Below are positions 2,341-62,100 of a DNA stretch of 64,000 nt, piece after piece. This stretch comes from Leucoraja erinacea (lineage: Eukaryota): contig NC_073377.1 in the NCBI RefSeq assembly GCF_028641065.1, positions 160,394,001-160,458,000 on the forward strand, read 5' to 3'. Positions within the stretch are counted from its first letter, which is position 1; each line of letters opens with the position of its first letter. Under the pieces are notes generated by a model, which saw nothing but the letters and a program-made list of their open reading frames with translations, had not been told where the DNA came from and searched no databases. The position numbers and the translations under genes are program-made.

Positions 2341-2394
2341 CCATTTTTAAGATATTGAACATAGTTTATACCAACGAGACACCAGAGATTTCAG

Positions 2395-2632
2395 AAAGAC
2401 ACAAAAAGCTGGAGTAACTCAGCGGGTCAGACTCAGACATCATCTGTGGAGAAAAGAAATAGGTGACCCTTCGGGTCGAGACCCTTCATCAGAAGAGACC
2501 CTGAAGATGGGTCTCGACCCATGATGCCACCTAATCCTTGTCTCCAGAGTTGCTGTAGGAGCCACATAGTTACTCCAGCTTGTTGTGTCTATCTCTAGTG
2601 TAAATCAGCATCTGCAGTTCCCTCCTACACAG
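2395..2632. mobile_element. Penelope-like element terminal fold-back with degenerate hammerhead cores
   Basis: Inverted arms gctggagtaact / agttactccagc; CTGATGAAGGGTCTCGACCC on minus (~2473-2492) and CTGAAGATGGGTCTCGACCC on plus (2501-2520). Confidence 0.7.
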
Positions 2633-2960
2633 AGATTACAGAAGCTGAAATCATGAGCAAAGAAACCAAAATGCTGGAGGAACTCTGTGGGTCCGGCCAC
2701 ATAGATTTGAAACATATTACTAATCAATATGGACATTGGAAGCCAATTATTATATGAATGTTCAAGACATTTATTTCAGAAAGATATGAAGGAATCTAAT
2801 TTCTCTCTCACTGAGGTCCAGTGAAACAATTTTGTTTTGCGAGCTATCCAGCCAGATATATACCATCTATAGATATAATCAGTCCAAGCTCAAGTACAAA
2901 TGATAGAGCAAACACATAGCCTATTCCACCAGCAGGCAAGAAGACAGCTGTGAATACCAA

Positions 2961-3182
2961 AGGGCCTGTCCCACATGGGCGTTGTTTGCACGTCACGCAG
3001 ATGGCGAGCGAAGATTTTGTACATCGCAAAATCCTGGGGTGCCGCTCGTGACTGCACGTCACTGCCTACGTCACCACGCACCATGCGCGCGTAATGCACA
3101 CCATGCGCGTCACGACCCGTGCGTCATGCGTCGTGACGCGTAAATTATGTCACGTAATTGACGCCCAAGTGGGACAGGCCCC
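2961..3182. mobile_element. PIF/Harbinger-type MITE
   Basis: TIR AGGGCCTGTCCCAC / GTGGGACAGGCCCC; flanks CAA / TAA; CpG-rich interior. Confidence 0.75.
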
Positions 3183-3569
3183 TAAGTGTTTATAGTAAGC
3201 TGACCATTAGCTGATCTAATCCCCTCAACTGCCTGTTTTCTTGCAAAGGGTTGACTGGAAAGTTTGAGGAAGCTCAGGAAACCTGTGGACGTGATATTAA
3301 ATTTAAAACTGCATTGAAATATTGCTCTAATTGTGTGATTCCCATTTGAATAAAAGCAACAGAGGGAATGTTACATGGTGCAGGTGAGCGGACATACACT
3401 GATCGGATTAGTTGCGAAACAGCTAATGACGAGGGCACAGGTTGTCCTGGACTGGAATGAATATTTCTACACAAGAAGAGTATTGATAATGGGGCTCATC
3501 CATTCCTTCTCTACAGAGATGCTGCCTGTCCCGCTAAGATACTCCAGCATTGTGTGTCCAGCATGTTGA

Positions 3570-9843: not shown

Positions 9844-11286
9844 TCATGTCCATCAGGTAGCTAATAGTACATTGCCTAACCCTTTGTAAACACATGATCA
9901 TAAACTCCGAACAGCTGGGCCTACAATCCTGCCAGTTAACCAGGAAGGCTTAATATAGTTTTAGCACATTGAACGATCACTAAGCAAACATTTCTAAAAA
10001 TCCAACACGCCTACACGTGCAATAGCAGTCTTTTATTGAGAAAACTACGGCAATTTAGATTTTGAAAGATACGTGAAGATGGCAGATTCGCAGAAACAAA
10101 TTGTTTATTGCGAGGTCTCTTCTTTGGCAGTCCAATATAAATCAATAATATTTTTTGACACTATAAAATCAAATGTGTGCCCGCACAAGCATTGAGGCCC
10201 CACATGTTCTCTGGGAACGTTCTGTATCAATGCGCAGATCATTATCTGTAGAACGTTAGGGAAAGGCACAGAAAAAGTCCAAGTAAGAAATCAAGTTAGT
10301 TTAAAGTTGTAGAGCGGGTGGGTGTGGGATGGATACGACAAGGTAAATATCTCTGTTGTGGTCACCTTACTGATGAATGAATGAAGACATCATTTAGCTT
10401 CTTGGTTAATGACAGCAGCTCGAGGGACTGAGGACAAACTAAGGGACATGTAAAGCTCCGGGTGCAGAGTTGTAAGGAGCAGTCAGTAAAGCAGCCCACC
10501 AGTGGAGAGAGCAAAATGGAGCCAATATTACAGGTGGATAAACATAGCATTACTTGACAGTTCCAATACAACAGATACTCTACAAAGAGGGCAGTCGAAC
10601 TGCGTTGCTTTCTCCGATAATCACCACCTTGTGAACATTTCCAACATTTGCTGCTGTTATTTCAGTTTTCCAGCCGTGTTTAAAAGCTTTCGATAACTTT
10701 ATGAATCCAGATCTCAGAAAAGGAAAGGCATTTGCTGCAGAATTTCACACATATAACAGATGACACTGCTGATGTTGAACCTCCTTCACCGGCAGTGAAA
10801 TCTTCTCATCTCCTCAAATTGAAACAAAAGTCACATTTTTGCTCAAATGATTAAAGCAAGCGGCAGGCATTTTGAATGAATGCTGTAAGTTTAAGGCAAC
10901 TGTGAATAAAGGCCAGTTCAATGTTATTCCGCAAATAACTTAAACCAAACCGCCAATGTTGTCTTAGGTCAGTGAATTTTCCAGAACAAGGTTAAAAGGT
11001 TAATGTTGGGAATATTGTGTATTGGTTGCTAATAATCAAACTCACTGTGTGGCTGCTCTGATCCTTAAACTTATCATAGATCTTCATGGGATAGTCTCAG
11101 ATCCCCGCACAACTCACATTCAGAGGCTGAAAGTGAAAAGTTGCCAATTGATCAAGTCACTAGAAAGCAAGAAGCATTCATGGAAATGTACCTTAGAAAG
11201 GAATCAAAATCTAAATAGACAAAGGGAAAACTATCAGTAAGGAAAGAAATATTAACTGATCATACATGTGGGAGATGCCTGGATAT

Positions 11287-11763
11287 ATATATATATATAT
11301 ATGTATTTATATTTATTAGAAGTGATATATATATGTATTTATATTTATTAGATGAAAAGTGTTTTTTACTATAATATGTCATTATACTTTATATAATATA
11401 TGTTTGCTTCTAATAAATATATATTTATTAGAAGTGATACATATATGTATTTATATTTATTAGAAGCAAACATATATTATATTATATAAAGTATAATGAC
11501 ATATTATAGTAAAAAACACTTTTCATATACATCAAATACATTGATAAAATTGTCGATTGTCGATTAATTCTGCTTCTAGTGTTTTTTTTATATAGATAGA
11601 AAGAGAGAGAAAGAGAAAAGAAGAATTACAAATATCAAAAAAGAGAAAAAGTGGAATGAATTACTAATAATACGTCATTGGAGATTATAAAGTATAACTT
11701 TTCATCTAATCCCGAGTTCAAGCTTCAGTTGGGTTTCCATGCCGGGCCAATCTATCCCTTTGG
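11287..11763 (-). mobile_element. Probable L1-like 3' UTR insertion with internal inverted duplication
   Basis: TSD GATGCCTGGATAT at 11274-11286 and 11764-11776; minus-strand CTTCTAATAAA end similar to the L1 at ~7790. Confidence 0.55.
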
Positions 11764-12240: not shown

Positions 12241-12604
12241 CTATACGATTAGAACATGTACACGAAACAAACATGGGATGATAAATGCAATAAAATACTT
12301 TTTGTAGAATCATTTGTGTTGCTGGAGAGGTATGATGCCTTTCACAATGTAAACCACTCAGTCAACAACATGCACCAGCATCATTGTTACCATGGATACA
12401 GAATCATTGTATCATTTTTCACATTGGCCAAGTAAGATGTATTCAGTGCACCATAGCATAGCGATGCCTTTACGTACCGTAAGATCTCCTACTCTCAAAT
12501 GAGCAGGGGTTGGAATGTAATATCTCATGAAGCACGCATGGTTCATCAAAAATATGAAGACCTATGTTAGAAATTGCTGCCATGATAACAGCAACATTGT
12601 CAGT

Positions 12605-12822
12605 AGGTAGACAAAAATGCTGGAGAAACTCAGCGGGTGAGGCAGCATCTATGGAGCGAAGGAAATAGGCAACGTTTCGGGTCGAAACCATTCGGGTCTG
12701 AAGAAGGGTTTCAACCCGAAACGTTGCCTATTTCTTTCGCTCCATAGATGCTGCCTCACCCGCTGAGTTTCTCCAGCATTTTTGTCCACCTTCGATTTTC
12801 CAGCATCTGCAGTTCCTTCTTA
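12605..12822 (+). mobile_element. Penelope-like fold-back insertion with an intact minimal hammerhead ribozyme core (12694-12728)
   Basis: ~85-bp inverted arms, ~30-nt unpaired 3' tail, CTGAAGA-A-GGGTT/AACCC-GAAACGTT; TSD AGCAA(C/T)ATTGTCAGT at 12590-12604 and 12823-12837. Confidence 0.8.
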
Positions 12823-13739
12823 AGCAATATTGTCAGTTTCTGCTGACGTTCCATGCAACTGGCGATAACTTCTGGCATTCCTTCCTTCCTCTACTGATGC
12901 TGCCTGAGCTGTTGAGTATTTCCAGCGCTTGTTGTTTTATTCTAACTTATTCAATCTTTCTTAACAATTGAAAATTTCCAGCCATGATAAAATCCTCTGC
13001 TAAACAACAGATTGTGTGAAAATGGACCGAATACTGGATGATTTTAAAATCAATTGTGCAACCTTGAAAAGCCTGTCCCTGAGTCGTTCAGTTTGACAGC
13101 ATTTATAGAGGTTGTCCCGACTTCCAGATGACGATCACGCCGTCTCTGATAACGGTTTTTCACAGGGTTGGATTCAGTTGGATTGTAGACTGGAACTCCC
13201 CTGGTGACCCCCCTCCCGCGGTTGGCATGGTGACGCATACCATCCCTGCTTCCCTGTTCCCCAATATCCCCCTCCTGGGGCCATTTGGGGGCCTCATCCC
13301 TGCGCCCCCTCTCCCGCCCAGTTAGGGTTGGGGTTCTTCCCTGTAAAATATTCTTCCCCATGGAATTTAAACCTCCATATATGAAAATTAATCAATCCCG
13401 CTGAGTCCACTTATAGATGTCCGCTTCCATAACTTTTCCAGGGAATCTCCCCCTTATCCCCTCTTAACCCCCCCCTTCTACCCCCTACCCTTCTCCCCTC
13501 TCCCCCATTCCCTCCCCCCCCCCCCCCACTTCTCCCCCTTATCCATTACCCCCTACATTCCCTTCTCCCCCCCTCCCTCCCTTCTCCCATTCCCCCCCCC
13601 CCCTCCACTTTCCCAGCCTTCAACCAGCGACCCCCCGCACACTCCCCACTTTACCTGAGTGCCAGCAGAAACCCAACGCCTAACCCTAACCCAGCCTGCA
13701 AATCTCTTCCCGCCTCTGCGATCCCACGCACCTCGAGCC

Positions 13740-15275: not shown

Positions 15276-16271
15276 GTTTTCCAGCAACAGTGGGTTTTTT
15301 TACACAGAAAAATGATGTTATGACCATTTCAGAGACACTGTTTCAAGCGGGACGTATCTGGCAGGTTTTGTTCTGTCCTGGGTTTTGATGTTTCTGATAG
15401 GGGGGGGAAACGAGGTGGAGTGTTTGTGTTACTAATTATGGAGAATGTCACAACTGCTCAAACATGGGATCTGCCACTAAAGCTCAAAAATAAGAAAGGC
15501 ACAATCACGGGAATGGGATTGTGATGTAGGTCTCTCAATAAACCAGTGGGAAAAGGAGAACCAGATGCGTAGACAGATTATGGAAAGTTATAAAAGCAAC
15601 AGGATTGTCTAGGAATGACTTTGAGTTCCCCAATATTGACTGGGACCTCCTTTTAGACGGGACAGAATTTATTAGATGCATCCAAAGGGGATTAAAAAAA
15701 AATATGTGGGCAGTTCAACTGGAGAAAGGGCCATGTGGAATATTGTATTGGGAAACAAACCTGGCTAGGTAGACTCAAAGAAGTGCAGAAGATGGTTTGC
15801 CAAAAAAGACACAAAGTGCTGGAGTAACTCAGCAGGTTAGGCAGCATTTCTGCAGTACATGGTCCCGACCAGAACCATGTTCTCCAGAGATGCTGCCCGA
15901 CCTACAGAATCATTCCAGTAACAGTTAGACACAAAATGCTGGAGTAACTCAGCAGGTCAGGCAACATCTTTGGAGAAAATGAATAGGTGAGACCTTTCAG
16001 GTTGGAACCCTTGTTCAGGCGTATTCCAGCACTTTGTGCCAAACTTGGCCAGCTGACTGGCATTTGGGGAGGAGAGCATTTTGGGAACAGTGGTCACAAG
16101 TTTTAAGATGGTTATGAATAAGGCAGACCTTATGGGGTGAAGAAAATTACAACATTGTTAGGTTGGGAAAGTAAATTGGGAGCATCTGTTATTAAGTGAC
16201 TCCACATCCAACATGTTGGAATCATTTAAGGGCAAGCTGATTAGAATCTTGGACCAGCATGTTCCAAAAAG

Positions 16272-24233: not shown

Positions 24234-24502
24234 TCACTTCATGTCCACGTCAAAGTCCAACACAAGCAGCTTTGTTTCCTCAGTCCCATTTCTGCTTCCC
24301 ACTGCACAAACTAGCTTTGTATTCGATGCTCTGATTCTCCAAACAACACCTCCACTGCCTCCACTCTCCAGTGTAACCAAATTCCGAATGAACTCCCCCG
24401 TTTTCAGGTCCCATAGTTTTACAGTGCCATCATCCGAGCTAGTTACCACAAAGTTCTTGTTGAATTGGAGGCATGTCACAGCACTCTGATGTTTGCTAGG
24501 CC
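24234..24502 (-). CDS. FBXW7: FBXW7 last coding exon (GPSKHQSAVTCLQF...LLVLDFDVDMK*), 269 nt
   Basis: cattag|GGCCTAGC... stop TGA at 24236-24234; C-terminus LDFDVDMK matches FBXW7. Confidence 0.97.
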
Positions 24503-25077
24503 CTAATGAGGAGAAACAAAGCAAAGTAAATAAACAATACAATTATTAATACAAAAAATACACAACAGAGATAATAACAGCAAAATCCCAGCACTTGAAT
24601 GACAGGAATATAGGTTCACCTTTGTGATATCAAAATTAATTTCTTATGTATTAATGTATAAACCTGAATTACCTAATACTAAAAATGACCATGAAACTTT
24701 GGATGATGGACAGAGAGAAAATTTGCCACCATTTTTTAACTATTGGGACAAAAAGAATTAATGTTCGGATTTAATTTTTTCAGTTGTTGAAAATATCCAT
24801 ATCATTTGTCAAATTAACTAACTTTCCTTCATAAATTATGAGAATAAATACAGATTTCTGCACAGGGTAATCAGTCAATTTATACCGAATATCCTGACCC
24901 TCCTGCAAGTTTTTATCCCCGACAGAATCAACTACTATTTTTTTCACCCTGTCAAAAGGGAATAATTCCTACAATTGTTCACCCTTTTTATCACAAAATA
25001 CATTGCCATAAGTTATGCTCCACATGTTGATAAATTGGAACTGCATTGCAAGGGCAACCTGCATTTTCTGTACTGTT

Positions 25078-25293
25078 TTCAAGAAGGAACTGCAGATGCT
25101 GGAAAATCGAAGGTACACAAAAATGCTGGAGAAACTCAGCGGGTGCAGCAGCATCTATGGAGCGAAGGAAATGGGTAACATTTCGGGCCGAAACCCTTCT
25201 TCAGACTGATTTCAGACTGAAACGTTACCTATTTCCTTCGCTCCATAGATGCTGCTGCACCTGCTGAGTTTCTCCAGCTTTTTTGTGTACCTT
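25078..25293 (-). mobile_element. Penelope-like fold-back insertion with hammerhead core (25173-25206)
   Basis: Same family as 12605-12822; minus strand GTCTGAAGAAGGGTTTCGGCCCGAAATGTTACCC. Confidence 0.8.
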
Positions 25294-25509
25294 TCCTGGA
25301 ATGTTTATGCCTATAAAGCAACCAAAATTAATTAACAAGAGGCATTACATGATCACAAACAAATGATGCCATTGTCTCCTACATTAACAAAATCTAAAAT
25401 CAGATAGTAAAAAACTACCTGCTAAAGTGTTGGAGGATAATTTTGAGGCACTCACTGCTAATTCAGAGTCCTTGGGGTGCATTTGCAGCAATAAGAGCAG
25501 CAATGGAAT

Positions 25510-25861
25510 CATAGAAACATATAAATTAGGTGCAGGAGTAGGCCATTCGGCCCTTCGAGCCTGCACCACCATTCAATATGATCATGGCTGATCATCCAAC
25601 CCGTACCTGCCTTCTCTCCATACCCCCTGATCCCCTTAGCCACAAGGGCCAGATCTAACTCCCTCTTAAATATAGCCAATGAACTGGCCTCAACTACCCT
25701 CTGTGGCAGAGAGTTCCAGAGATTCACCACTCTCTGTGTGAAAAAAAGTTCTCCTCATCTCGGTTTTAAAGGATTTCCCCCTTATCCTTAAGCTGTGACC
25801 CCTTGTCCTGGACTTCCCCAACATCGGGAACAATCTTCCTGCATCTAGCCTGTCCAACCCC
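25510..25861 (-). mobile_element. CR1 3' fragment
   Basis: VNLWNSLPQRVVEASSLAIFKRELD; CATAGAAA tail. Confidence 0.9.
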
Positions 25862-27128
25862 TCATCACTGAAAGGGGCCGTACAAAGTAATTCTGACAGT
25901 GCTGTTGTGCTGGGAAGGTAGTGTGAAACCCTGTCCTCCCAGTTGCTGCATCTGTAGTACAGAAATCATATAGCAATGACTTGCCGTTCATGAGGGTTGG
26001 TGTTTGGTGGGTCAGGGTGAGTGGTGCGGCTGCTCAGTTCAATGGCTGGTACATTTCAGTAGAAGCAATTAGTGGGAAGTGGCAACACCAGCCACACCAT
26101 GGGCAGACTGCTATGGTACGGGCTTACTTGACAAAGTTAACATTCAACTTGGTTGGAAGCAATGTGTTTCAGTGCATCAAAGAATACCCATCCCATGGGC
26201 ACTGGGCAGGAAGGAGCTAAAGTATGATTTCCAAACCTCGCTTTTGCACAACAACCCGTTTACATCACAGCATGGATACTAATATATTATCACCAATCAC
26301 TCATTTTTCACTCAATCTGTGTTGGCCCAGATTTGGAGGATACAGCCACTGGTGTAATCCCACTGATGTTTCACTTGGGATCAAAGATCAACTCTGGAAT
26401 CTCCATGTCCCTATGGTTCAGTAAACCACCTTTCAATCCATTTATCCTCTCAGGCACCACGAAGACAGTTAACACCAATATCTACAAACACATCCCAATC
26501 TCATACTTAATATTGTTTGTAATTAGTTGTGCAACTAATCTTTAGTTTTAATCTAATATAAATGTGACAGCCAACCCTAAATCACTTGGTTCATAAATTG
26601 AATTAAAAAAAATTGAAGCCTAATAATAAATGGTAAATAAAGCTTGAAATGGGACAATATTAACCGTGTAACATTCAAAACTTAAAGGAACCGTGTACTG
26701 CTGTGTTTCTACCTTTATCATCCAATTCAGTAATACGAAAGGCTCTTGGTTTCTTTAGCGTTTCTCTTGGGTTAATAATCAAACATGATAACAGGATTTG
26801 ATGTTTTAAGCACTTTATGTGACAGCAGCATGTCCCAAATAAATATTCTTGGATTAAAGTCACTGCTGTAATCAGATGCCGATGCAATGTGCACAGAGCA
26901 ATCAGCTGGCCTAAATCGTCTATTTATTTAAATAATACTAACTGTGTGATCATTCCTGAACACCAAAAGATTATCCCCATGATGATCTATATAAAAGGCA
27001 CTTTGAATATTAACTATACTGATGGAAGCAGAACTGTATTGGGTATTCACCAATGGAAAGAAAGCTTTAAATGTGAAGAGATTTCAATTCAACATGTTTT
27101 GTGGCAGAAATGGGATTCTGACACTCAC

Positions 27129-27339
27129 CTTGCAATGTCTGTAAACACTGTCCGGTTTTGATGTCCCAGATTTTCACAGTGGAATCTGCATTACCAGACA
27201 CTAGAGTGTTGTCCTTCAGTTCCATCCCACTTGTTAATGACTGATGTCCTGTTAGCGTGTGAATACAATTCCCAGTCTCCACGTCCCATACACGGATAGA
27301 GGTATCCAGTGAACCACTTACTACATGGATGCCGTCAAA
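27129..27339 (-). CDS. FBXW7: FBXW7 WD40 exon (FDGIHVVSGSLDTSIRVWD...GQCLQTLQ), 211 nt
   Basis: ttgcag|TTTGAC...TTGCAAG|gtgagt. Confidence 0.97.
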
Positions 27340-29053
27340 CTGCAATATCAAGGGGAAGAAGCACATCATCTTCTGTCAGACTGACAAGGCGAATTGAAGA
27401 AAATACCAAATAGTTTGCAATGTATTTTCATCTGCCTTGTAACAACATTTTATATAATAGTACAACATACACTGAACCAATGTCAATGTCAAAGAGACAA
27501 GGACCTGCAAGATATGTACAAGAGAACGTTATAATTGGTCTGTCTTAGATCAGTGAGAAATGAAGCATAGCCAGATTCTGGGAAATGGATAATTGGAGCT
27601 TGCTTTGGTAAACAGTGATCAGAATATCATTGGTATAAAAGCACTTAACTGGCTAACTTCAGGAAGGGAACCAACCTGGAATGAACTGGAATAAAATAAA
27701 AGAAGAATGGGAGGCATTTAAAGAGGTAATGGTTTGAATACTCAGATTTACATTACAGGGAAAGGAAGGCTATGCAGTTAGAACTCCAAATAAAACTAAT
27801 TAAAAGCTAAAAGACGACAGAAAAGGAAGGATTATGACATTAATAAGATTCATAATATGTTATAAATCGATGGAAAGTCATCAACCTGAACTGTTAACCC
27901 AGTTTCTCTCTCTGTGGATGCTGCCTGACTTGATATTTCTCCTACTTTGTTCTAGATATCTGGAGTTGGCATTTGCAATGGTTTGTTTTTGAATATTGCA
28001 AATACATAGGACATTTAAAAAAGGGACTAATAGAAGCAAAGTAAATGAGAATAGATTAGCGACCAACATTGTAGTGCACAATATGCAATCTGCAGGCCAC
28101 ATCAGACTCTCAGGATGGATCCATCTGTTGTACACTTGCTATCTCCCCAGCCCTGCTCCTGTGCCTTCTGGCCCCTCATCATGCAAGCTGCTCTCACTGT
28201 GAGCTTGCCAAAAGTCCTCTTGATGAGCCCAGCCTCTTGCAAGGAGACCAAGGGTAAGGATGTGGACTGCAGGAGGAGCAGTATAAAAGCAGCAGCTGAA
28301 GATGGAAATATTGGACTCCACTGTTCTGCTGTCTGTCCTATCCCCACAACTCACCCAACGCCAGAATCTCTTGAGTTCAGGGATGAGACACTAAGTAACC
28401 ATTTGGCCTAGTATAATCTTCTGGCCCAGAGTCAAAATCCAGTACTGTACTAGTGGGCATATTCCTGCCATTGTAAAGTAGTTATAGTACATGTAGGAAC
28501 ACATCTCTTATTACATAACAGGGATTAAAACTGTGGTGGGCACAGGTCTTTCACTGTATAATACAAGGGTACAGTATGGATGTTCAACGATCTGGCAAGT
28601 GCAAGGACAAACAGAGATATTTTGAGTGGACCATTGCGGGGGCATCAAATGGAGCAGTAAGTGGGTCATAGAGTGAGTGTGGAAACAGGCCCTTCGGCCC
28701 AACTTGCCCACACCGGCCAACATGTCCCAGCTACACTACTCCCACCTGCCTGCGTTTGGTCCATATCCCTCTAAACCTGTCCTGTCCATGTACCTATCTA
28801 ACCGTTTCAAGTTGGGGAGCAAGACGGCAGAAGATGCAGTGGTTTGGTGATAAGAGTAACCAGTAAAAGGGCAGCAGGAACCAAGGCTATGTGTTATTAA
28901 ACATGGCAAAAAATATTAGTGATTAAACAGCAAATCTGCAGATAGAAATATTCAGCAGCCAGGCAGCATCTGCAGAGAGAGCATCAGAGCTACAACATTT
29001 CACATCGATGACCCATCACCAGAACTGAAAAAGTGAGAAAAACAATAGCTTTA

Positions 29054-29578
29054 AGGGGCTGTCCCACTTGGACGACCTAATCCACGAGTTTAGAAGACCC
29101 TAGATGAGTTGAAAAAAATGTCAAGGTCGTGTTGACTCGCCGAAGTAAATGACCTCCTACGACTTTGTCTACGACTATGTCTACGACCTCCTTCGACCTC
29201 AGTCTTCCACACCTAAGACCAACTACGACTAGCTACGAGTGGAAAATTTCACATGATAAAATGTCATGTTTGCATTTTTTTCCCTCAGGCCAGTTACTGA
29301 CCTAAGATTACCTACGACTACCATCACGACCTACCTACGAGTAAAAAGTATCAATTCTTTCCATGCCAACCTTTTTTCTTTTTTTTTTTTAAACTCGTGG
29401 ACATTTTTTTATCAGGCTGGAAAAAACGCCGCGACCTACTTGAGGCCACGAGTAAGCGGAGACCACTCACAAGCATGAGGAAGAGTTACGAAGACTTCCC
29501 GCGACCATGCTGCGAGTACGAGTCAAGGGCAAACTCGGCAGAGGTCGCCAATTAGGTCGTGAAAGTGGGACAGGGGCT
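29054..29578. mobile_element. PIF/Harbinger-type MITE
   Basis: AGGGGCTGTCCCAC...GTGGGACAGGGGCT; flanks TTA / TCA; interior repeats of CTACGAC. Confidence 0.65.
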
Positions 29579-30024
29579 TCAAGATGCAGGGAGGCATAGA
29601 GAGAACAAATGGCATGTCTGTGATGGAGTAACTTCACCTGCTCCTCTCTATGCTGTTATTACTAGAAATATCTGCATCCAATTATGTAGTGTTAAATTAA
29701 AAGCTCTTTATCGGGAGTGACCCTCAGAAGTAGTTTGGGATTACAAATATTCCTAACTGTTCAAGTACTAGTCGCTAAGAAAATGCAACTTTTATGGTCT
29801 GTTTTAGAAGGTAAAATATTCAAGAGTACGGGGTTGATGAGATTCTAGAAAGCATAACATCATAAATAAAGCACATGCTGACAATATACCTTTGGACACG
29901 GCAGTAATGATATTGCACAGCTCAAACATTAAGGCTGCTAATTAAGTCATGAATATGATTAAAAGTAAACTAGTCCATTTTAAGGAAAACTATTGCACAA
30001 TAACTCACAACGGCCCAACAAGAA

Positions 30025-30822
30025 AAACATAGAAAAAAGGTGCAGGAGTAGGCCATTCGGCCCTTCGAGCCTGCACCGCCATTCAATATGATAATGGCTG
30101 ATCATCCAACTCAGTATCCCGTACCTGCCTTTTCTCCATACCCCCTGATCCCTTTAGCCACATCTAACTCCCTCTTAAATATAGCCAAATGAGCTAGCCT
30201 CAACTACCTTCTGTGGCAGAGAATTCCACAGATTCACCACTCTCTGTGTGAAAAATGTTTTTCTCATCTCGGTCCTAAAAGACTTCCCCCTTATCCTCAA
30301 ACTGTGACCCCTTGTTCTGGGCTTCCCCGACATCGGGAACAATCTTCCTGCATCTAGCCTGTCCAACCTATTAAGAATTTTGTAAGTTTCTATCAGATCC
30401 CCCCTCAATCTTCTAAATTCTAGCGAGTACAAGTCGAGTCTATCCAGTCTTTCTTCATATGAAAGTCCTGCCATCCCAGGAATCAGTCTGGTGAACCTTC
30501 TCTGTACTCCCTCTATGGCAAGAAAGTCTTTCCTCAGATTAGGAGACCAAAACTGTAAGCAATACTACAGGTGTGGTCTCACTAAGACCCTGTACAACTG
30601 CAGTAGAACCTCCCTGCTCTTATACTCAAATCCTTTTGCTATGAATGCTAACATACCATTCGTTTTCTTCACTGCCTGCTGCACCTGCATGCCTACTTTC
30701 AATGACTGGTGTACCATGACACCCAGGTCTCGTTGCATCTCCCCTTTTCCTAATCGGCCACCATTCAGATCATAGTCTACTTTCCTGTTTTTGCCACCAA
30801 AGTGGATAACCTCACATTTATC
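30025..30822 (-). mobile_element. CR1 3' fragment
   Basis: ORFs 30175..30474 and 30565..30861 (KCEVIHFG...RDLGVMVH). Confidence 0.9.
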
Positions 30823-32683
30823 CTCTTTGTTATCAACTACGTTATCTTGTGAATTGGTCACTCAGCCCTCCACCCACTACCACATGGGCCAGAACAAGTC
30901 ATCCATCCCATGTTGAATCGGCTCCTCACAAACTACACTAGAATTTTCCTACAGCCCAGCTATTTCACCAACCCAACCTTGATCCACAACGCTATTGGGT
31001 GGCAGGAGCAAAGGGAATGGCAGAGTCAGAAACAAAATATGTGAATAAGCCACAAAAAGTGGCAGGGCGGGGAGGGGAGACAGATCGAGGGGCAACAAAG
31101 TGATGGGGGAGTGATGAGAGGGCAAACATGTGGGCAGATTACCCAACTGTGATGCGCAGCATTGAAGAGCAACGAGATCAGAGAGGTAGAGGGGGCTTGG
31201 TCAGGGGAAAGTGATATAAAACTAAAGGGATTTTCAGAAGGAAAGGATAAGAAAAGAAGGATAACCAGATTCATGCACCTTGACAAAGGGATATTCACTG
31301 TCTGGTGAATTGTGGTGGGAGTGAATTTGGAGCAATTAGCCTGGCTACAGCACTTGTGGGAATCTCTCCCCATCATTTATGCTCTCCCTTCTTGTCTATC
31401 CCTCCCCTTGCAGTATCTCATTGAGAAAGAAACCGATTGGAAATGCTTAGCAGTGAGTATAACAACCTATTTGATGATTAGCACACCGTCACCAAGATAA
31501 CCATAAGAGGCCTAAATTGGAATCATGTAAAATGTTAAGGATGATGTTGAGGAGGTAGTTACAGAGATAGAGAAAGTCCACAGAAAGATTTGAAAATGAG
31601 CAGAATTTAAATTGCATCATTAGTGCTGGCGGAGCCAAAGTGTTTTCTTTTGAATCATTCAAAATTGGTTCTTTATTATTTAACAGTACAATTAGAACAA
31701 TGATTAAATAATTATTTCCCCCAAAAGCTTGACGAATCACAATTATTTTTTGTACAGCTCCATAGTCGATACAATATCAGATAAAATGAACGAAAGTAGC
31801 GAAACCTTTAGAGAGAATTCTCCGAGACAAAATTAATCGGCTGCATTCATCAAAGTACCACTATTTCTGTCTCCCAACTAACTTGGAATATAAAGTTTGA
31901 ATTAGGAGTTGCATCATCTGTTGCCACAAAACACCATTGATCCAACGCTAATGCTACGATATACGAGAGGGGCCGATTGATTAGCAACAGCAGTCAGTTG
32001 TTAACTTGAAAGTAATTTTATTATAATTCTAATCCATGAAGATTGTGCTCGTAAATAGAACATATTTCCAGAGCCTATAAGATTATCTCCCATTTCTCTT
32101 CAGTGCGACCAGCCAAGCATTGTTAAAAGGATCCTGACGAGAACATTTGTTATTTTTAAGTAATTGAAAATCAACTCAGATCAGAGTAAATCGCATTTGC
32201 AACCAATTCCAGGTCAAATCACACCAACTCATTTGTGCACTCCTAAAGCCCAGTTCAATTTCCATTTCAATGGCATACATGATGATGAAATTCCTCATGC
32301 AAAGTCCCGTCTACAGCACTACGGGGCAATTTGGATTGCGATATCTTGGCGTTGTCTACTGAAGGGTACTCCAAAACCAATTTCATCAACTAAGTTATTG
32401 AGAAATTTACATCTTCTCCTCTCCAAAAACTAATTGGAATCCCTACAATCACCCCAAACTCCTTCCCATTCAAATATACAGCATTATCATGATGCGCTAA
32501 CTGACTAGCCATGTGCATGTCCAACTTGCAAAACACTGCAGAGCTGCTTGGCTAGCCTCTTCAACCCTGGGGAGATCAGCCATTTCCAGCTCCTAAACTC
32601 CATTTCCAAATCCCCCACCCACTCACAAGCTGTACTCCAGCCCTGGACTCTGACTAGTTTGGTAGCCAATCTCCTGCATCCGT

Positions 32684-33147
32684 CATAGAAACATAGAACA
32701 TAGGTGCAGGAGGAGGCCATTCGGCCCTACGAGCCAGCACCGCCATTCATTGTGATCATGGCTGATCGTCCCCTATCAATAACCCGTGCCTGCCTTCTTC
32801 CCATATCCCTCGACTCCACTAGCCCCTAGAGCTCTATCTCTCTCTCTCTTAAATCCATCCAGTGACTTGGGCTCCACTGCCCTCTGTGGCAGGGAATTCC
32901 ATAAATTCACAACTCTCTGGGTGAAAAAGTTTTTTCTCACCCCAGTCTTAAATGACCTCCCCTGTATTCTAAGACTGTGGCCCCTGGTTCTGGACTCGCC
33001 CAACATTGGGAATTTTTTTTTCCTGCATCTAGCTTGTCCAGTCCTTTTATAATTTTATATGTTTCTATAAGATACCCCCTCATCCTTCTAAACTCCAGTG
33101 AATACAAGCCTAGTCTTTTCAACCTTTCCTCATATGGCAGTCCCGCA
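32684..33147 (-). mobile_element. CR1 3' fragment
   Basis: ORFs 32776..33006 and 32937..33158; CATAGAAA tail. Confidence 0.9.
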
Positions 33148-33559
33148 TCACAGAACAATGCTCCACTGGGGGTCTATTACTATGGTCTACATGGAACAAT
33201 AGAGTATCCATGTGTCAAGCAGTCTACCTATTTGTAAACGATGCACCATCTGTAGACACAAGAGTATGCTGGAACTTTGATTAAAGAAACAAGTGCCAGG
33301 GGAACTCACGAGTCTAGCAGCGTCAGTGGAGGGGATGGACAGGGGTCGGCATCCTTCTTCAGATACGAACCATCACCTATCCATTCCCTCCACAAACGTT
33401 GCCTGGCCCGCTGAGCTCCTCCAGCACTTTGAGATTTGCTCAAAATTTCAGCATCTGTAGTTCTTTGCGCCCCCAACAACTTAATTCTTTTTCGGCAGTA
33501 CACAAAAATGAAAATGGTTCAAAAGAGAAACTATGAAAATGATGACTCCAGTTTCTTAC

Positions 33560-33785: not shown

Positions 33786-33854
33786 CTGCAATGTTGAACA
33801 AAAAGCCACTGTGTTAGGGGTGTTATAGATCAGGTTGTTAACCAAATAACAGAT

Positions 33855-34236
33855 ATGTAGGGAAGGAACTGCAGATGCCGCTTTAAACTGAAGATAGACA
33901 CAAAATGCTGGAGTAACTCAGTGGGACAGGCAGCATCTCTGGAGAGAAGGAATGGGTGGCGTTTCGGGTCGAGACCCTTCTTCAGACAGAAAGTCACAGG
34001 AAAGGGAAACAAGAGAGAGAGATAGACAATGATGAAGAGAGATATAGAACAAATGAATGAATGATATGCAAAAAAGTGACAATGATAAATGAAACAGGCC
34101 ATTGTTAACCGTAGCTAGGTGATAATGAATGAAAGATGGTGTGACTTGGATGGGGGGGAGAGAAGGATAGAGGGTTACTTGAAGTTAGAGAAATCAATAT
34201 TCATACTCTTGGGTTGTAAGCTGCCCAAGCAAAATT
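33855..34236 (-). mobile_element. Penelope-like element 3' part (ORF end plus terminal repeat with hammerhead core 33954-33987)
   Basis: Minus strand LGSLQPKSMNIDFSNFK* (PLE C-terminus), then GTCTGAAGAAGGGTCTCGACCCGAAACGCCACC. Confidence 0.75.
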
Positions 34237-34304
34237 GACATGTCAAACCAAATATAGAGGATAGACAAAAGTGCTGGAGAAACTCATATTCATAGAAACT
34301 CAAG

Positions 34305-34922
34305 ATTCATAGCAAAATGATTTGAGTATAGGAGCAGGGAGGTTCTACTGCAGTTGTACAGGGTCTTGGTGAGACCACATCTGGAGTATTGCGTACAGTT
34401 TTGGTCTCCAAATCTGGGGAAGGACATTATTGCCATAGAGGGTTCACCAGACTGATTCCTGGGATTTCAGGACTGTCTTATGAAGAAAGACTGGATAGAC
34501 TTGGTTTATACTCTCTAGAATTTAGGAGATTGAGAGGGGATCTTATAGAAACTTACAAAATTCTTAAGGGGTTGGACAGGCTAGATGCAGGAATATTGTT
34601 CCCTATGTTGGGGAAGTCCAGGACAAGAGGTCACAGCTTAAGGATAAGGGGGAAATCCTTTAAAACCGAGATGAGAAGAAATGTTTTCACACAGAGAGTG
34701 GTGAATTTCTGGAACTCTCTGCCGCAGAGGGTAGTCGAGGCCAGTTCATTGGCTATATTTAAGAGGGAGTTAGATGTGGCCCTTGTGGCTAAGGGGATCA
34801 GAGGGTATGGAGAGAAGGCAGGTACGGGATACTGAGTTGGATGATCAGCCATGATCATATTGAATGGCGGTGCAGGCTCGAAGGGCCGAATGGCCTACTC
34901 CTGCACCTAATTTCTATGTTTC
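34305..34922 (+). mobile_element. CR1 3' fragment inserted into a Penelope fold-back (34260-35008)
   Basis: ORF 34389..34835; TTTCTATG tail; AAACTCA duplicated at both junctions. Confidence 0.9.
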
Positions 34923-35136
34923 TAAACTCAGCGGGTGCAGCAGTAACGGAGTTTCTCCAGCACTTTTGTCTACCTTTGATTTTCCAGCATCTACTGTTCC
35001 TTCTTAAAAACCAAATAGAGATGTCAGTTTGTTTCAAATTATATCCAATACATTAGAGAGCTTTCATGCTGTTTACCGATACAATTTGGAATGTCGAGGA
35101 ACATTGTCACCTCTGTAATTAGAGGTATAATCTGAC

Positions 35137-38563: not shown

Positions 38564-38680
38564 CAAAATATTTTTACATGGAACCGATTCTAATTAGTTG
38601 AAATAGATTTCCAGCATTTGCAAAATTTGGCATTTGACTTAAGAAGTAATCATGAAATATGTGGAACTGAAGAGATGTAC

Positions 38681-40412: not shown

Positions 40413-40686
40413 GCCCCGGGGGCATGAACATCGAATTCTCCCAATTTTGTTAGTCCTTGCTGTCTCCTCCCCTTCCTCAGCCCCCCTGCTGTCTCCTCCC
40501 ATCCCCCAGCCTTCTGGCTACTCCTCCTTTTCCCACCCCCCGCCCCCGATCAGTCTGAAGAAGGGTTTCGGCCCGAAACGTTGCCTATTTCCTTCGCTCC
40601 ATAGATGCTGCTGCACCCGCTGAGTTTCTCCAGCTTTTTTGTGTAACCTTCGATTCTCCAGCATCTGCAGTTCCCTCTTAAACACC
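40413..40686 (+). mobile_element. 5'-truncated Penelope-like element with an intact minimal hammerhead core (40552-40585)
   Basis: PGGMNIEFSQFC* ORF end; CTGAAGAAGGGTTTCGGCCCGAAACGTTGCC; TSD TAGCAAT at 40406-40412 and 40687-40693. Confidence 0.82.
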
Positions 40687-42796: not shown

Positions 42797-42997
42797 CTAA
42801 AGAAATAAAATAACTACATTTAGTGGAAATAAAAAAAATAAAAAATGGTATGACAAAAGTGTAATTTGAATAAGTACGGAAATAATATGGGGTAGTTAAT
42901 TTATTGAATATACAAGTTGATAATGCAGAGGTAGAGACAGATTAATCTTCAATGTTCCTTGTATGTAAATACTTGGCCAATAAACTTACTTACTTAG

Positions 42998-43182
42998 AGT
43001 ACACAAAAATGCTGGAGAAACTCAGCGGGTGCAGCAGCATCTATGGAGCGAAGGAAATAGGCAACGTTTCGTCCCGAAACGTTGCCCATTTCCTTCGCTC
43101 CATAGATGCTGCTGCACCCGCTGAGTTTCCCCAGCATTTTTGTGTACCTTCGATTTTCCAGCATCTGCAGTTCCTTCTTAAA
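42998..43182 (+). mobile_element. Penelope-like fold-back insertion (hairpin centred on the ribozyme position, catalytic core absent)
   Basis: ~73-bp arms around a 3-nt loop (CAACGTTTCG tcc CGAAACGTTG); TSD TACTTACTTAG at 42987-42997 and 43183-43193. Confidence 0.8.
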
Positions 43183-44799
43183 TACTTACTTAGTGGCAAT
43201 AACCAACATTTATTGCATTATTTAAAAAGTGCTTAGATTAAAGTAGACAGATTTCTATTACAAGTACTGTATACCATGCAAATACAACCATTACAATGAC
43301 AGAGCAGCACATCCCTACATTTTCAGATTTCTGATCATAACCTTGCACCTCCCCTCTTCTGCAGTTGTTGTAGCATTTGCTCATAAGTAATAGCGAGTGC
43401 TATGAGCTTCGCCCTTGTTTTGACAGCAATCAATTCAAAAGGGTATTATTTACATTGGTTTAATTGCATTGCATTAATGCGTGGAAACAGGAAATGAAAG
43501 CAATATTTAAAAGCTAAAAATCAAAGTATAAAGTTAAGTGCATATTTACCTTTAATCAATGAGAAGAAAAGCAGCGGCAATAGTTACAGAATGATGAAAG
43601 TGAAAAAAGTGAGGGGCCAGCTAAAGCACAGATAGAAAGAAAAACAAGGAATAGAAACTTGCAATGCAAAGCTTTCTTGATACTTAAAGGTCTATATAAA
43701 TTCCTGATTTGGAATTAAATGTCATCCCAAATTTCCCCCAAGTAGCATTCCACTACTCCTACGACTATGTTCTTAATATATCATGACAAAATAGCATTAT
43801 CCTAAACCATTACTGTGCTTCAATCTCTCTCCATCTACTTAAATTAGGAGTGGTGGGCAAGATGAAAGGATTACTCTAGTGCAACTCTGCAAGTATTATT
43901 ATTTGTCCATTATTATCCTCAAAGATAACGAGAACCCCAAGAGAACAATTTGGGGAAAACTGAGATCAATCCAGCTTAACTGGTTTCTTACACTACCTCA
44001 CATTAAGCACCATACTCTGGTCCACCTCAATATCTATCAATCTTGCACTAAAAAAAAAGCAGTTTCTCAAAGAAAATGGGACATCCAAAGCAATAACTCA
44101 GACATAGCCTGGGGTGGAAGATTGCAACCTTCCCGTGGTCCGCCCTGTTTCGACTAATGCAATCAGCTCGACGTGCACAAACAGAAGATCAAATAGAACA
44201 AGTTGTCCTGCAACTTTAGGCTGTGCACGCCACAGGAAAGAAGAAGACATAGCCTACAAATGGCACTAGAACCCCACACCAATCATTCTTTGACATTATT
44301 CCCAGAGTCTTGTTGGAATGGGAGTTCCTGAATCCAACAACAATGAAAGGCTTAAAATGAGTTTGCATTTCAAAATGGTGTTTACCTAGGAGAGCCTGCT
44401 GCTCCCAGTATTTCCATTTGTTCACCATCCATACGGTTGATACCAGTGTTGAATAATTGTTGTGTATTTTGTAGATAGTACCAACTGCAGCCACCACGAG
44501 TCAGAAGTGGAGGGAGGATATCTTTAAAGAGTTGAATGGAGTGTTAGTAATGTGGTTGCCTTGGCCACAGGGCATCTTGAGAGTTGTGGGAGGTGTATTC
44601 ATTGAGGCATATGAAGGGTATTCCATCACACTTTGAGCCTTGTAGATGTTGGAAAGGTTTTGGAGAGTCAGAATATTCAGCCCCAGATCTGCTCTTCTAG
44701 TTACAGTATTTATATGCCTAGCGCACTTAACATTTGAGTCACTGGTGAACAATGAGGATCTGGCATCAAGAATGCCACTGAGCATCAATGGAGAAATAA

Positions 44800-47924: not shown

Positions 47925-49210
47925 CAAACCACCCCCTCCTCTGGTACTTCCTCCAGCAACCACAGGAGATGTAATATTTGTCTCTATACCTCCTCCCTCA
48001 CCTCCATTCAGACACCAGAGGTCCTTCCAAGTTAGACAGAGGTCCATGTGTACGGCATCTAATCTCATCTACTGTATCCAGTGCTCCCGATATGCCCTCC
48101 TATACATCAGCGTGACCAAGCGCAGACATAGAAACTTTGGTCTACAAGGGCCTGCTGGATCTCCCTAGCCATTTTAACTCCACTTCCCATTCCCATTCTG
48201 ACTTCTCTGTCCACAGTCTCCCCCAATGCCCGAGTTATGCCACATGCAAACTCAAGGAATTCCTTATATTTTGCTTGGGTAGCTTACGACCCAAATGGTA
48301 TGAACATTGAATTCTTAAATATTAGGTAACTACATAATCCTTCCCCCTCTCCCTTCTTCCCCTCTTCCCCACCTGGACCTGCACCTACCTCACCCCTCCC
48401 GGTCCACCAACATTCCTTCACAATTCCAAACTCTTCAATTCTTTAGTCTGACACCTTCTGTATTTTCATCTGTCTCCTCAGATCCTGGTGAACTTCTACC
48501 GCTGCACCATCGAGAGCATCCTTACCAACTGCATCACAGTATGGTATGGCAACTGCTCTGTCTCCGACCGGAAGGCATTGCAGAGGGTGGTGAAAATTGC
48601 CCAACGCATCACCGGTTCCACGCTCCCCTCCATTGAGTCTGTCCAAAGCAAGCGCTGTCTGCGGAGGGCGCTCAGCATCGCCAAGGACTGCTCTCACCCC
48701 AACCATGGACTGTTTACCCTCCTACCATCCGGGAGGCGCTACAGGTCTCTCCGTTGCCGAACCAGCAGGTCGAGGAACAGCTTCTTCCCTGCAGCTGTCA
48801 CTCTACTAAACAACGTACCTCGGTGACTGCCAATCACCACCCCCCCCCCCGGACACTTATTATTTATTTTTTATTCAAATCGTTTGCTATGTCGCTCTTC
48901 AAGGGAGATGCTAAATGCATTTCGTTGTCTCTGTACTGTACACTGACAATGACAATTAAAATTGAATCTGAATCTCTGGACATTGTCCAACTGTCTGCCT
49001 ATCAAAAAAAAACCTCCTCCTCACCCAAATGAGCCCATTACCTGCCAGGTTTCGTCCCCCCCCCCTTCCCCCCCTCGTTTCCAGCTTTCATCCCCCCCGC
49101 CCCTACAATCAGCTTGAGGAAGGGTCCGGATGTAAAACAGCACCATTCCATGTTCTCCAGAGGCGCCGCCAGACCTGCTGAGTTACTCCAGTACTGTGTG
49201 TCTTCTTTTG
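47925..49210 (+). mobile_element. Degenerate Penelope-like element: GIY-YIG endonuclease, C-terminus and terminal repeat
   Basis: SFQVRQRSMCTASNLIYCIQCSRYALLYISVTKRR (IY...YI GIY-YIG pattern); LGSL..NGMNIEF end at ~48330; terminal repeat at ~49100-49210; interrupted by Rex1. Confidence 0.8.
48469..48975 (+). mobile_element. Rex1/Babar LINE 3' fragment (young)
   Basis: ORF 48488..48826 NFYRCTIESILTNCITVWYG...NSFFPAAVTLLN; (GAATCT)n tail. Confidence 0.88.
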
Positions 49211-54089: not shown

Positions 54090-54470
54090 AAAACACAAAG
54101 CACTGGAGTAACTCGGCGGGTCAGGCAGCAGCAAGGAGAGAACGGATAGGTGACATTTCAGGATGGAGCCCTTCTTCAGACAGAAGGGTCCTGGTTAGCG
54201 GGTGCTTCTTCTTCAGGCTGATTGCAGTAAAAGGGGAGAAAGCTTGGAAAGGAGGTGGGAGTGGGACAAAGCATGGCAAGTGACAGGTGGAGACCCAAGA
54301 ACTGCAGAAATAGTAAAACACTAACACTGGAGTAAGGCAGTAACTGTGCAGGGAATGGATAGGTGACATTTCAGGATGGAGCCTTTCTTCAGACAGAAGG
54401 GTCCCGGATACAGGTGAGAGGGGTTTGACTGGATACAGGGGTGCTGATTGGCAAATGGATGGACCAGGAA
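54090..54470 (-). mobile_element. Penelope-like terminal repeats with tandem hammerhead-like cores
   Basis: ~48-bp direct repeat at 54144-54191 and 54357-54404; minus strand GTCTGAAGAA(G/A)GGCTCCATCCTGAAATGTCACC. Confidence 0.65.
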
Positions 54471-54971
54471 TAACTTGCATTTATGCACTGTCTTTCATTT
54501 TCCCAAGATATCAGAAGGCATCCTAATACCAGTAAGTTTTGTTTAAAATGCTAGAATTGTTAGTATGCAGCAAGTATAACATTCAATTTGCATGCACCAT
54601 GGTTCCCTGCAAAAAAGTGAGATTAACAGCTAATATGTTCATTAGTCGAGGATGCATATTAGCCGGGCCACGAGAAGAACTACTCTGTTTATTGGAGTAC
54701 CACAGGAATTTTAATGCCCACCTACTACTGGAGGCCGGAGGCTAGGTCACAATAAAATGCATTCTTCAAAGCATTGGTACTGGTGATAATATGCAATTCC
54801 CAGCCTTATGCGAGACTGGATTATGAAATATTGGGTATTTGAACACATAATTTTGACTCAGCTGCAGTACCACTCAGTCATAATGGAACATAAAACATGG
54901 TATTATTTGTGCAAATGGTTGGTGTGATTGAGATTGCTTATATATTGGATCATCAAAATGAGGCATGGAAT

Positions 54972-59128: not shown

Positions 59129-62100
59129 AAGAATGGGCGAGCTTACACTAACAGCTAGAAGAAAACCGCCGCCTCCACAAGCCAATGCAGTAATTCTCAC
59201 ACGACAAAGCTGTACTTGGGCTTCGGAGGGGGCAAAAAAAACAGAACAAAACAAAAAGGAGGAGGGAGGGGAGAGCTGATGCAGGGGCAAGCTAGCCTTG
59301 TCCAATAAACAGGTTCTGCTGTGCCTTAACAGATGGGTGAAACTGCACTGTGTTCCACCCCCTGCCTTGTAAGAAAGAAATGGCTCAGCCCAGCCAGCAA
59401 CAATGTGAGCTGCACGTCAATTAGATGAACAAAGCCCCAGGGAGCCTGCAAGCTGAGGGCGAGCGAAACGGAAGGAGAAATGCAGCCGGTTTCACATGAT
59501 TAAATTCAACTCATTTTCCTCCCCCCCCCCTCCAACTCATTTCCCTCCCCATTTGCATTCTGCGGGCAAGTGGAATGTGTGGAATTATTGATACATCCCA
59601 GGATTCTGTCTCCGGTGTTCAATGAATCGCATTTACTTTTTTTTATTATTATTGAAAAGGGGACTTTTCTCTCACCATTTACTTTGCGGTCTGTATGTCG
59701 ATGCTGTCTCTCACACACACACACACAGACAGAGACAGACCAAGCCTCTCTCCGGCACCCAACCCTCTTGTCCTTCATCGTGTTTGAATCATTTCACCTG
59801 CCTTTTCTCACAACAAGCATCATGCAGGTGGTATGTGGGCTAGAACTCAGGGGGTTTTTTTCCCCCCCATCTGCCAATGATCATTCATTGCCAGAGCAAT
59901 TGGAGCCGGGTTGGCAGAGGTCGGCCACCTACTTTGGGAGTTAGTTTTGCTTCAAGTGCGCTCTTGGAAACCCCTGAGAGGCAACTCCCAACCTCTGCAG
60001 AAATGAGTGGAATGCCAAGCATGCAGAGGTCACGTTAGTTCTTTGAAGCATCGATGACCCCTTGACGTTAACCTTCTGGCGTGCAATTCCTGATCAACCG
60101 CGCCAAGATTTGAGAATGGTAGGCTGAGATTTTCAGATTTTGAGATTTTCGGAGCCAGACAAGAACCTTTGCAAAACAGGTGTCGACTTGAACCTAAACT
60201 GTTCAAAATCAGTTTCACACCCACTTTCTTACTGCCCTCCAATGAACAGACCAGTGATAGCCCTTATAAAGTGTCAATCACATGCATACTTTTTCATTTT
60301 CCAACATAGGAAACGTGACTGTACATTGACATTGCACAGGGTTGGCCAGAAACGGAATTAGCATAAATAGAAAACTTAACATATTGTACAAAGGTGGTGT
60401 TCAATGAATCTTTAAGAACATATAAGAGATAGCAGCAGAAGTAGACGAATCTATCTGAAGAAGGGTCCCCACCTGTAACAGCATCTATCCATGTTCTCCA
60501 GATACACTGCCTGACCCACTGAACTAATCCAGCACTCTGATAACATAGTTATGCTACCTGACCCGCTGAGTTGCTTCACCATTTTGTGCCTTTTATGTAA
60601 TTGCACATCTGCAGTTCCTTGTGTAATTGAACATCTGCAGTTCCAGAACATCTGCAGACTACAAGTCTGCTCTTTTACTCAATAGGTTTTGGCTGATCCA
60701 ACCTTAGATTCCGCATGAATTTCTCATTCCCTTCCACATCTTCTGACTTTATTAAAAAAATTCACCTTGAATATATCCGATGACTCTTCCCGTCTAGGAT
60801 AGAATTCCAATAATTCATGACTATGTGAAATTCCTCATTATTGTCTTAAATAGGCTTTCCCTTGTAAGTTCTAGACTGCCCTATCACAGTCCTCTCAGCA
60901 TTCACTCCATCAATCCCCTTCATAATCTTATCTATTTCAATTAGGTAATTCTCATTCATTTAAAATTCAACGTCCACACTGCTCAATCCTTCTTCATACG
61001 TCAGCCTTTTCCTCCAGGTGAACCTCCCAATAGCACTTCCAAGTACAGTATACCATTCCTTAAAATTTGAGACAAAAACTGGACCCAGTACTCCAGGTAT
61101 GGTCTCACCAGCACTCTATAAACTTGCATCATCAGTACAAAGTATTAATTTCAGATGGTTGTTAAGAGTAAATCGTGCTGGAGTCACACTTGCACCAAAC
61201 TGGGGAAGGAGGGCTTATTGTCTTTCCTTATTTTCTATAGTTTCAGGGTTACCATTATTGATAGCAGCGTTTTATTCCACATATGTAATTATTTGGATTT
61301 AAACATCTCAGTTGTGATGATGGGATTTGAACTCTTATTTCTGGGAACATAGTACTGGCCACTGCATTGTCATCCATCTTACCACAATGCTTGTGTACCC
61401 GATGGCACATATGTACACAAGCATTAGCGAGAAAGATTTAAACCCTCAAGTTAGTGGAGACTTTCTAAGTGAAGAAGAACCTGAAGGCTAGATGTCCAGT
61501 TTTGGCTGGCATGTACGTATTGAGCTGATTGGGGGGTTCCTCGACGTGAAACATTTCTATAAACCTAACAGAGTTACTCCAGCATTTTGTGTCTACCTTC
61601 AATGTAAATAGACAAGGTTGAAATACATAAGTTATAGGAATTGGAGGCATCTGGTGTCGGGGGAAGAGTGGGATAGAGGATGTGGGTACAGGACTGGAGG
61701 TAGTTGCACAGAGAAGGAATACTGAATGGCAAGGCTTCAGGGAAATTAAGGACAACGATTGCTAATACGTGCATATCACTGAATTTCCTCTCCGGAGAAG
61801 AAGATGATCTATGAAGGAATACACGCTATCCATTCACCAAAGATGTGTCCAAAACCTATTTGGTGGCCACAGAAACACCTACATTTTGACTGTGATCCAA
61901 CAAGATGAAGTGGGAAATGTTACCATTTATACCATTGCAAAATATATTATCAGAAAACACAATCAAAATTGTGTCTAGGGTGAGGTTTGTGGACAGAGAA
62001 GATCCACTATGAAAACTTTAAACACTGATAGCCCACTTAGTGCTCACCAAAGAGCACTTGCAAGGGATAAGCACAGCACTCTGTACTAAGCTCTTAATCT

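Follow-up and report, generated by a model that had tools for sequence, protein, structure and literature searches.

We found that a 218-bp hairpin insertion (12605-12822) in the Leucoraja erinacea genome is likely two head-to-head short end pieces of a Penelope-like retrotransposon, and likely a dead by-product of insertion. It lies in a 64,000-nt stretch of forward-strand DNA (the window) that holds many relatives of it. The best explanation of the whole, to which we give a probability of about 0.7, is that these hairpins are end repeats of a Penelope-like element (PLE) joined head to head between target-site duplications (TSDs), that each was likely made at its own insertion and is likely dead, and that the hammerhead ribozyme motif is predicted to be unable to fold within the hairpin. 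The parts and layout of the hairpins are already published for PLEs, and the element itself is ordinary. Feature coordinates are listed in Table 1.

Table 1. Parts of the focal insertion and related copies in the window
Feature	Position	Strand	Evidence and remarks
Left TSD	12590..12604	+	15 bp; 1 mismatch to right TSD
Left arm: inverted, tail-less PLE end repeat	12605..12693	-	starts ~5 nt inside hammerhead core
Fold-back junction, locus-specific	12694..12697	+	source of extra stem I pairs
Minimal type I hammerhead motif	12698..12729	+	core 12698-12704; predicted cut between 12725 and 12726; from sequence
Right arm: sense end-repeat copy	12703..12791	+	89 nt
Tail, on one side only	12792..12822	+	31 nt; family contigs stop at 12823 in 4/4 runs
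Right TSD	12823..12837	+	15 bp
Older hairpin copy	2383..2643	+	14-bp TSD, 1 mismatch; 8-nt local duplication at junction
Decayed hairpin-like copy and adjoining single arm	15780..16021		blastn, profile; TSD search negative
Hairpin copy, hammerhead on minus strand	25079..25293	-	10-nt local duplication at junction; no clear TSD
Decayed hairpin copy	33292..33465		profile
Longer 5'-truncated copy: MNIDF ORF end, spacer, hammerhead with changed U16.1, tail	33849..34245	-	9-bp flanking repeat; tblastn E 9e-4, 0.008
Hairpin without hammerhead, split by LINE fragment ~34290-34925	34255..35008	+	14-bp TSD, 1 mismatch
5'-truncated copy: MNIEF ORF end, spacer, intact hammerhead at 40555, tail	40413..40686	+	7-bp TSD; empty allele
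Hairpin copy without CUGANGA	42987..43193	+	perfect 11-bp TSD
Frameshifted PLE remnant: Cys-rich linker and GIY-YIG endonuclease end	47958..48326	+	E 4e-12 to P0020, P0021; 7e-16 to P0008
Continuation of the 47958 element past LINE-like insertion; decayed hammerhead near 49111	48973..49203	+	profile
Two decayed hammerhead-bearing units, direct orientation, 213 nt apart	54091..54473	-	profile, motif scoring
Decayed single copy and second partial unit	60449..60621	+	profile, motif scoring

The focal insertion is bounded by 15-bp direct repeats with one mismatch. When the same scoring was applied to 297 random spacings, this score was reached twice, both times inside a GA microsatellite. The two arms are 89 nt each with 96% complementarity, and the tail is 31 nt. 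A preliminary description of this DNA had proposed an insertion of ~220 bp with a 15-bp TSD, ~85-bp arms and a ~30-nt tail, which agrees well with these values. The left arm begins ~5 nt within the hammerhead core and therefore lacks CUGA. At the fold-back junction, the 8-mer at 12691 repeats the 8-mer at 12676.

A profile built from six copies was searched against the window and the reversed window. Its 31 hits form 22 segments that cover 3,502 bases (5.5%) of the window; the reversed window had no hits. Because in two cases a later LINE insertion divided one copy into two segments, the number of family loci is ~20 rather than 22. All 11 related sites named in the preliminary description are real: blastn with the focal element recovered 10 of them and the profile all 11 (five by construction). 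The proposed density of one copy per 6 kb had to be raised to about one per 3 kb, as counted by profile segments. The arm and one-sided tail layout of the focal element is repeated at 2395, 25078 and 42998. Hairpin TSDs scored above almost all of the null at four loci (focal, 15 bp; 2395, 14 bp; 34255, 14 bp; 42998, 11 bp); AT content was 60-78% in the TSDs, and no TSD was found at 25078, 15800, 54090 or 60450. The CUGANGA core is entirely missing in hairpins 42998 and 34255/34947. The same 9-mer occurs at 33840, 34246 and 35009, bounding the hairpin at 34255-35008 as well as the copy at 33849-34245, which suggests that one target site may have been struck twice by the PLE-end family. The 54091-54473 pair is the sole retrozyme-like pair in the window; each unit follows a short inverted-arm remnant, and both are decayed.

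The link to PLEs comes from the longer copies. Related units at 33855, 40413 and 47925 had been described as following a PLE ORF that ends in MNI(E/D)F; this motif was present at the first two positions, and at the third it was found near 48300 instead. tblastn of six homologues detected, at 47958-48326, a remnant spread over three frames (E 4e-12 to 7e-16) and, at 34178-34228, an ORF end; there was no match on the reversed window, and the 888-aa protein P0022 had no match in the window. An exhaustive protein search with the 50-aa stretch at 47986-48135 retrieved 17 proteins, four of which were set aside because they aligned only to its proline-rich start or to a short stretch. Pfam GIY-YIG was matched in two of the nine retrieved proteins scanned; the homologues carry PF01541, most of them just under the curated cut-off. 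A search with one homologue yielded three long proteins, two of them from sharks, that combine reverse transcriptase (RT) motifs with a Cys-rich linker and a terminal GIY-YIG endonuclease. RT motifs were confined to P0022 and the shark homologues, P0020 and P0021. Nothing was returned when the 50-aa remnant served as query in a word-index protein search, the remnants were unrecognised in a Pfam scan, exact-pattern scans of viral and metagenome contigs gave no matches, and tblastn found neither an RT remnant nor a full-length family element in the window.

Positions 47958-48017 align with the Cys-rich linker of P0008 and P0021. A Cys-rich linker between RT and endonuclease (EN) is a feature of Neptune elements, and is common to Nematis (PMC8557442). 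From this linker, the PLE family probably belongs to the Neptune clade. In the annotated zebra shark protein P0020, the terminal residues resemble a translation of the hammerhead of the window copies, and this C-terminus would indirectly tie RT, endonuclease and hammerhead motif together. The ORF ends in GIY-YIG upstream of the end repeat support a probable Penelope-like origin of the hairpins. The profile, the reads and tblastn support the earlier proposal of a Penelope-like family that is present in high copy number, carries minimal hammerheads, has an inverted end repeat and a tail, and is linked to a PLE ORF end.

Sequencing runs were used to follow the family beyond the window. Three RNA runs mapped on 40300-40800 gave 15,554 (of 12.9 million), 19,781 and 21,374 reads. 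Depth in the flanks was near zero, so these reads derive from copies elsewhere; no RNA data were listed for the focal locus itself, which says nothing about its expression. On the same interval, one DNA run yielded 95,432 contigs. A 1,520-nt contig (one contig, one run) passes directly from 40405 to 40687, is identical to the flanks over 106 and 114 letters, and represents an empty allele; the copy at 40413 is therefore young or polymorphic. This allele shows that the family was recently active. At the focal site, a contig from each of four organisms crosses from unique flank into the element and breaks off there after 10-21 nt, with ~0.3-4% flank substitutions. This entry is below the 31-letter bridging rule and suggests that the focal insertion is older and shared among organisms. 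No empty focal allele was seen in four runs among the joints listed, 15 of 785. In bulk RNA the arm was covered ~2.3 times as deeply as the tail, and in each of the four runs the family had fixed outer ends, at 12605-12607 and at 12823, both measures being confounded by edge effects and subfamily divergence. In the two single-cell runs the ORF-end spacer was covered far more than in bulk RNA, and family reads were strand-biased ~4:1, with read orientation and internal oligo-dT priming as confounders. At 40559-40595 a small proportion of reads and contigs step back 33-34 nt, forming short tandem duplications without the CUG of the core.

The focal hammerhead motif consists of CUGAAGA (12698-12704), an extra A (12705), GAA (12718-20), a palindromic ACGU (12721-24) and U17 at 12725. 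The core and ACGU proposed earlier were thus confirmed, and the predicted cut is placed directly after U17. Stem II, given before as 5 bp, was shortened to 4 bp (12706-09 / 12714-17, UUCA loop, closed by G10.1-C11.1), because the 5-bp version leaves a 2-nt loop. Focal stem I has 4 bp, two of them from the insertion's own junction letters; the solo copies 40413 and 33855 have 2 bp. The family helix I (2 bp) and helix II (4 bp, YUCG loop) are shorter than the 4-5 bp and 6-8 bp typical of metazoan PLE hammerheads, although such sizes are not strict, and D. virilis is likewise reported to have a helix I of 2 bp (PMC4209133). The minimal hammerheads of metazoan PLEs are described as having an extra nucleotide, as weakly active when dimeric, and as occurring in truncated, dispersed copies and in pairs 100-700 bp apart on opposite strands; the main text of that paper names no cartilaginous fish, and its supplements may list such motifs (PMC4209133). 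Every core letter and ACGU were retained in two of the nine motifs scored (focal and 40555), and the other seven were partly decayed. The two retained motifs have the core boxes, the extra nucleotide 9/10.1, the G10.1-C11.1 pair and the palindromic 15.2-16.2 positions.

The core proved to be more conserved than the arms: across 19 window arms, 151/166 (91%) of core letters matched the column majority vs 814/982 (83%) of arm letters (Fisher p 0.008, computed on non-independent rows). Of the 17 matches in an Rfam scan, none involved a hammerhead family, and all fell short of the gathering score of their own family. For annotation, the hairpins score as miRNA precursors below family cut-offs; a miRNA precursor reading was rejected, as these matches merely reflect long hairpins. 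The bare count of CUGANGA (55 vs 38.6 +/- 6.5) is little above chance and was dropped as evidence. A pyrimidine tract with a terminal CAG, one base 5' of the core, gives 40530-40554 and 49085-49110 a splice-acceptor-like appearance. An intron of D. virilis ends at the same place in its hammerhead motif (PMC4209133). No matching splice joint was present among the joints listed (15 of 139) for the runs mapped on 40300-40800.

Folding predictions separated the isolated motif from the motif in its hairpin. The isolated focal 38-mer is predicted to fold into stems I and II (-8.8 kcal/mol). Forcing the hammerhead fold carried a penalty of 34.6 kcal/mol in the full hairpin and of 2.2 kcal/mol when the right arm stood by itself; for two solo copies the penalties were 6.1 and 8.7 kcal/mol. 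The hairpin is thus predicted to sequester the hammerhead, which is probably inert there. In a plus-strand transcript the antisense arm comes first, and in a minus-strand transcript the sense arm lacks CUGA. PLE hammerheads reportedly cleave as dimers. In dimer co-folding, an intermolecular ACGU helix was not the lowest-energy form predicted.

All seven fold-back junctions in the window are distinct. Local duplications of 8-10 nt occur at three of them vs 4% of random 41-mers, the focal one being the weakest and requiring two inserted letters. Such duplications are a mark of polymerase-theta-type end joining. Arm starts were taken from 19 of the 31 profile hits, with one as reference. None of the 18 lies at the cut site, and the arms keep 20-30 nt of sequence upstream of it. 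For 13 of them the start falls between -6 and +5 relative to C3 of the core; several of these are points where subfamilies cease resembling the reference, and the two arms of one hairpin are not independent data. Family-wide, loose ends peak at -3 and -2 (242 and 279 contigs, 1053 reads). A palindromic centre also recurs in the family: at 40550, 208 contigs have a loose end that terminates in inverted-arm sequence. The joint 40560/40563 was seen in 13 contigs. The RNA start was placed from the copy ends and an initiator-like match, which was present at the putative start in three of the five copies checked.

That hammerhead cleavage of the template RNA in vivo set the fold-back point, or freed the stub RNA, is very unlikely. 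The fold-back points do lie near the motif, and the core is conserved across subfamilies. All four common motif variants listed (40567, 40571, 40582 and 40583; among 40 of 136 rows) are tolerated by the hammerhead descriptor; tolerated transitions make up 15/32 of those in the motif, which gives a chance of ~0.04 that all four would be. However, no arm starts at the cut, the sequence upstream of it is kept in the arms, and stem I of the family has only 2 bp. The RNA ends expected at the predicted cut did not appear either: no read-end pile-up was seen in three RNA runs, weak evidence given that these libraries are fragmented (oligo-dT, single-cell).

Double priming on uncut RNA is favoured because all seven junctions differ, no arm begins at the cut site, and loose ends fall at -3/-2; the fixed outer ends and the ~2.3-fold arm/tail depth fit priming at two sites. 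In the proposed mechanism, the element protein would nick both target strands 7-15 nt apart, and the 3' end of each nick would prime RT on uncut element RNA. The left nick would use an inner site and give the tail-less antisense arm. The right nick would use an outer site at the far end of the tail, 31 nt away, and give the tail plus an arm. Both cDNAs would run off at or close to the start of the RNA, 2-3 nt upstream of the hammerhead core. Fused by end-joining repair, they would leave inverted arms and a TSD, with a tail on one side and a centre that varies. The longer copies with ORF ends (33855, 40413, 47958) may stem from priming in the end repeat that sits at the RNA 3' end. Selection would maintain the hammerhead in the parent elements, and in the stubs it would be a mere passenger.

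Parts of this scheme have precedents. With a lizard PLE in vitro, both target strands were cleaved and extended, two RT start sites bounded the tail, and hammerhead cleavage was not required (PMC11167929). For D. virilis Penelope an internal promoter was shown (PMC2377424). Extended further, the stubs might be a genome-wide fossil record of PLE insertion, with two fixed priming sites 31 nt apart, run-off 2-3 nt before the hammerhead, and end-joining with templated scars; we advance this tentatively, at a little under even odds. If it is true, the puzzling inverted repeats and one-sided tail of PLEs would both follow from a single double-priming reaction. The origin of both features is named as unresolved in PMC8557442. 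A dense, recently active family offers many short and complete insertion records, each with a TSD, two ends and a junction, and two-strand and snap-back priming predict different things on them.

Snap-back self-priming, in which a single cDNA (or antisense template) folds on a short palindrome at the 5' edge of the hammerhead and copies itself to the second nick, is the chief alternative but improbable. A near-palindrome does span -5 to +3, the recurrent family-wide centres are palindromic, and the focal arms have common subfamily variants; self-priming from junction palindromes has been proposed for PLEs (PMC3846280). By itself, however, it leaves unexplained the fixed stop of the inverted arm ~31 nt before the tail end. 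At most one of the seven window junctions (42998) is near a clean palindrome, and three carry local duplications.

It is more doubtful still that the hairpins are non-autonomous, retrozyme-like units transcribed and retrotransposed by the PLE machinery, as the preliminary description had suggested for the ORF-less copies. The 22 segments in 64 kb, the hairpins' own TSDs, the abundant family RNA and the recurrent palindromic centre would agree with unit copying. That centre makes unit copying of a minority of hairpins possible; snap-back priming fits it also. On the other side, the window junctions are all different, the hammerhead is sequestered or missing in hairpins, and RT from the tail must traverse an 87-bp duplex. 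The 34.6 kcal/mol folding penalty and the arms that begin upstream of the cut also speak against the suggestion, and tandem arrays of the unit are absent: none of 30 tandem-repeat rows in the window is a hammerhead-bearing unit.

In non-LTR retrozymes every unit of a direct tandem array has its own hammerhead, and circular RNAs are formed (PMC7229834; bioRxiv 10.64898/2026.07.22.740005). They resemble the hairpins in being non-coding and derived from PLE end repeats with a type I hammerhead, and are reported from one chondrichthyan genome (same sources). The hairpins do not conform to this tandem layout: each window copy is a lone inverted pair that has no more than one intact hammerhead, which is predicted to be sequestered.

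The hairpins have their nearest published counterparts among insertions of PLEs with endonuclease. An inverted pLTR, a one-sided tail of 30-40 bp and a TSD are general features of such elements (PMC8557442), and Pen2a_Av has an inverted 5'-truncated pLTR, a one-sided 31-bp tail and a TSD (PMC3846280). The window copies share the inverted end repeat, the 31-nt one-sided tail and the TSD and, in longer copies, the end of a GIY-YIG ORF upstream. They differ from Pen2a_Av-type insertions in that most lack an ORF and the whole insertion is two ~90-nt arms; their TSDs are 7-15 bp vs 8-10 bp in the rotifer elements. The Poseidon element PAc of Anolis carolinensis (PMC11167929) is similar in its tail with two fixed ends, its fairly AT-rich targets and the lack of RNA-seq ends at the cut. 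PAc belongs to another clade, the Cys-rich linker here pointing to Neptune, and hairpin stubs are not derived from two-strand priming in the main text of that paper. We found no description of ORF-less PLE hairpin stubs in sharks or skates in the literature, as judged by titles and the starts of abstracts.

The window also contains FBXW7-like WD40 exons on the minus strand; a search with one of these exons had FBXW7 as its best natural match. These exons span 24234-42796, and several family copies are therefore intronic. The focal copy lies ~11 kb past the last WD40 exon. The hammerhead motifs at 25204 and 33985 are sense to the FBXW7-like pre-mRNA, and stem III is changed in both. Numerous CR1-like LINE fragments are present (e.g., 36174-37477), and one frame matches Pfam RVT_1 (E 8e-28). 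The elements at 2948-3195 and 41987-42361 have similar terminal inverted repeats of 27-35 nt, 180-320 nt apart, and are likely a MITE family unrelated to the hairpins. An AT-rich region at 11283-11546 shows nested inverted repeats and a 31-nt tandem unit.
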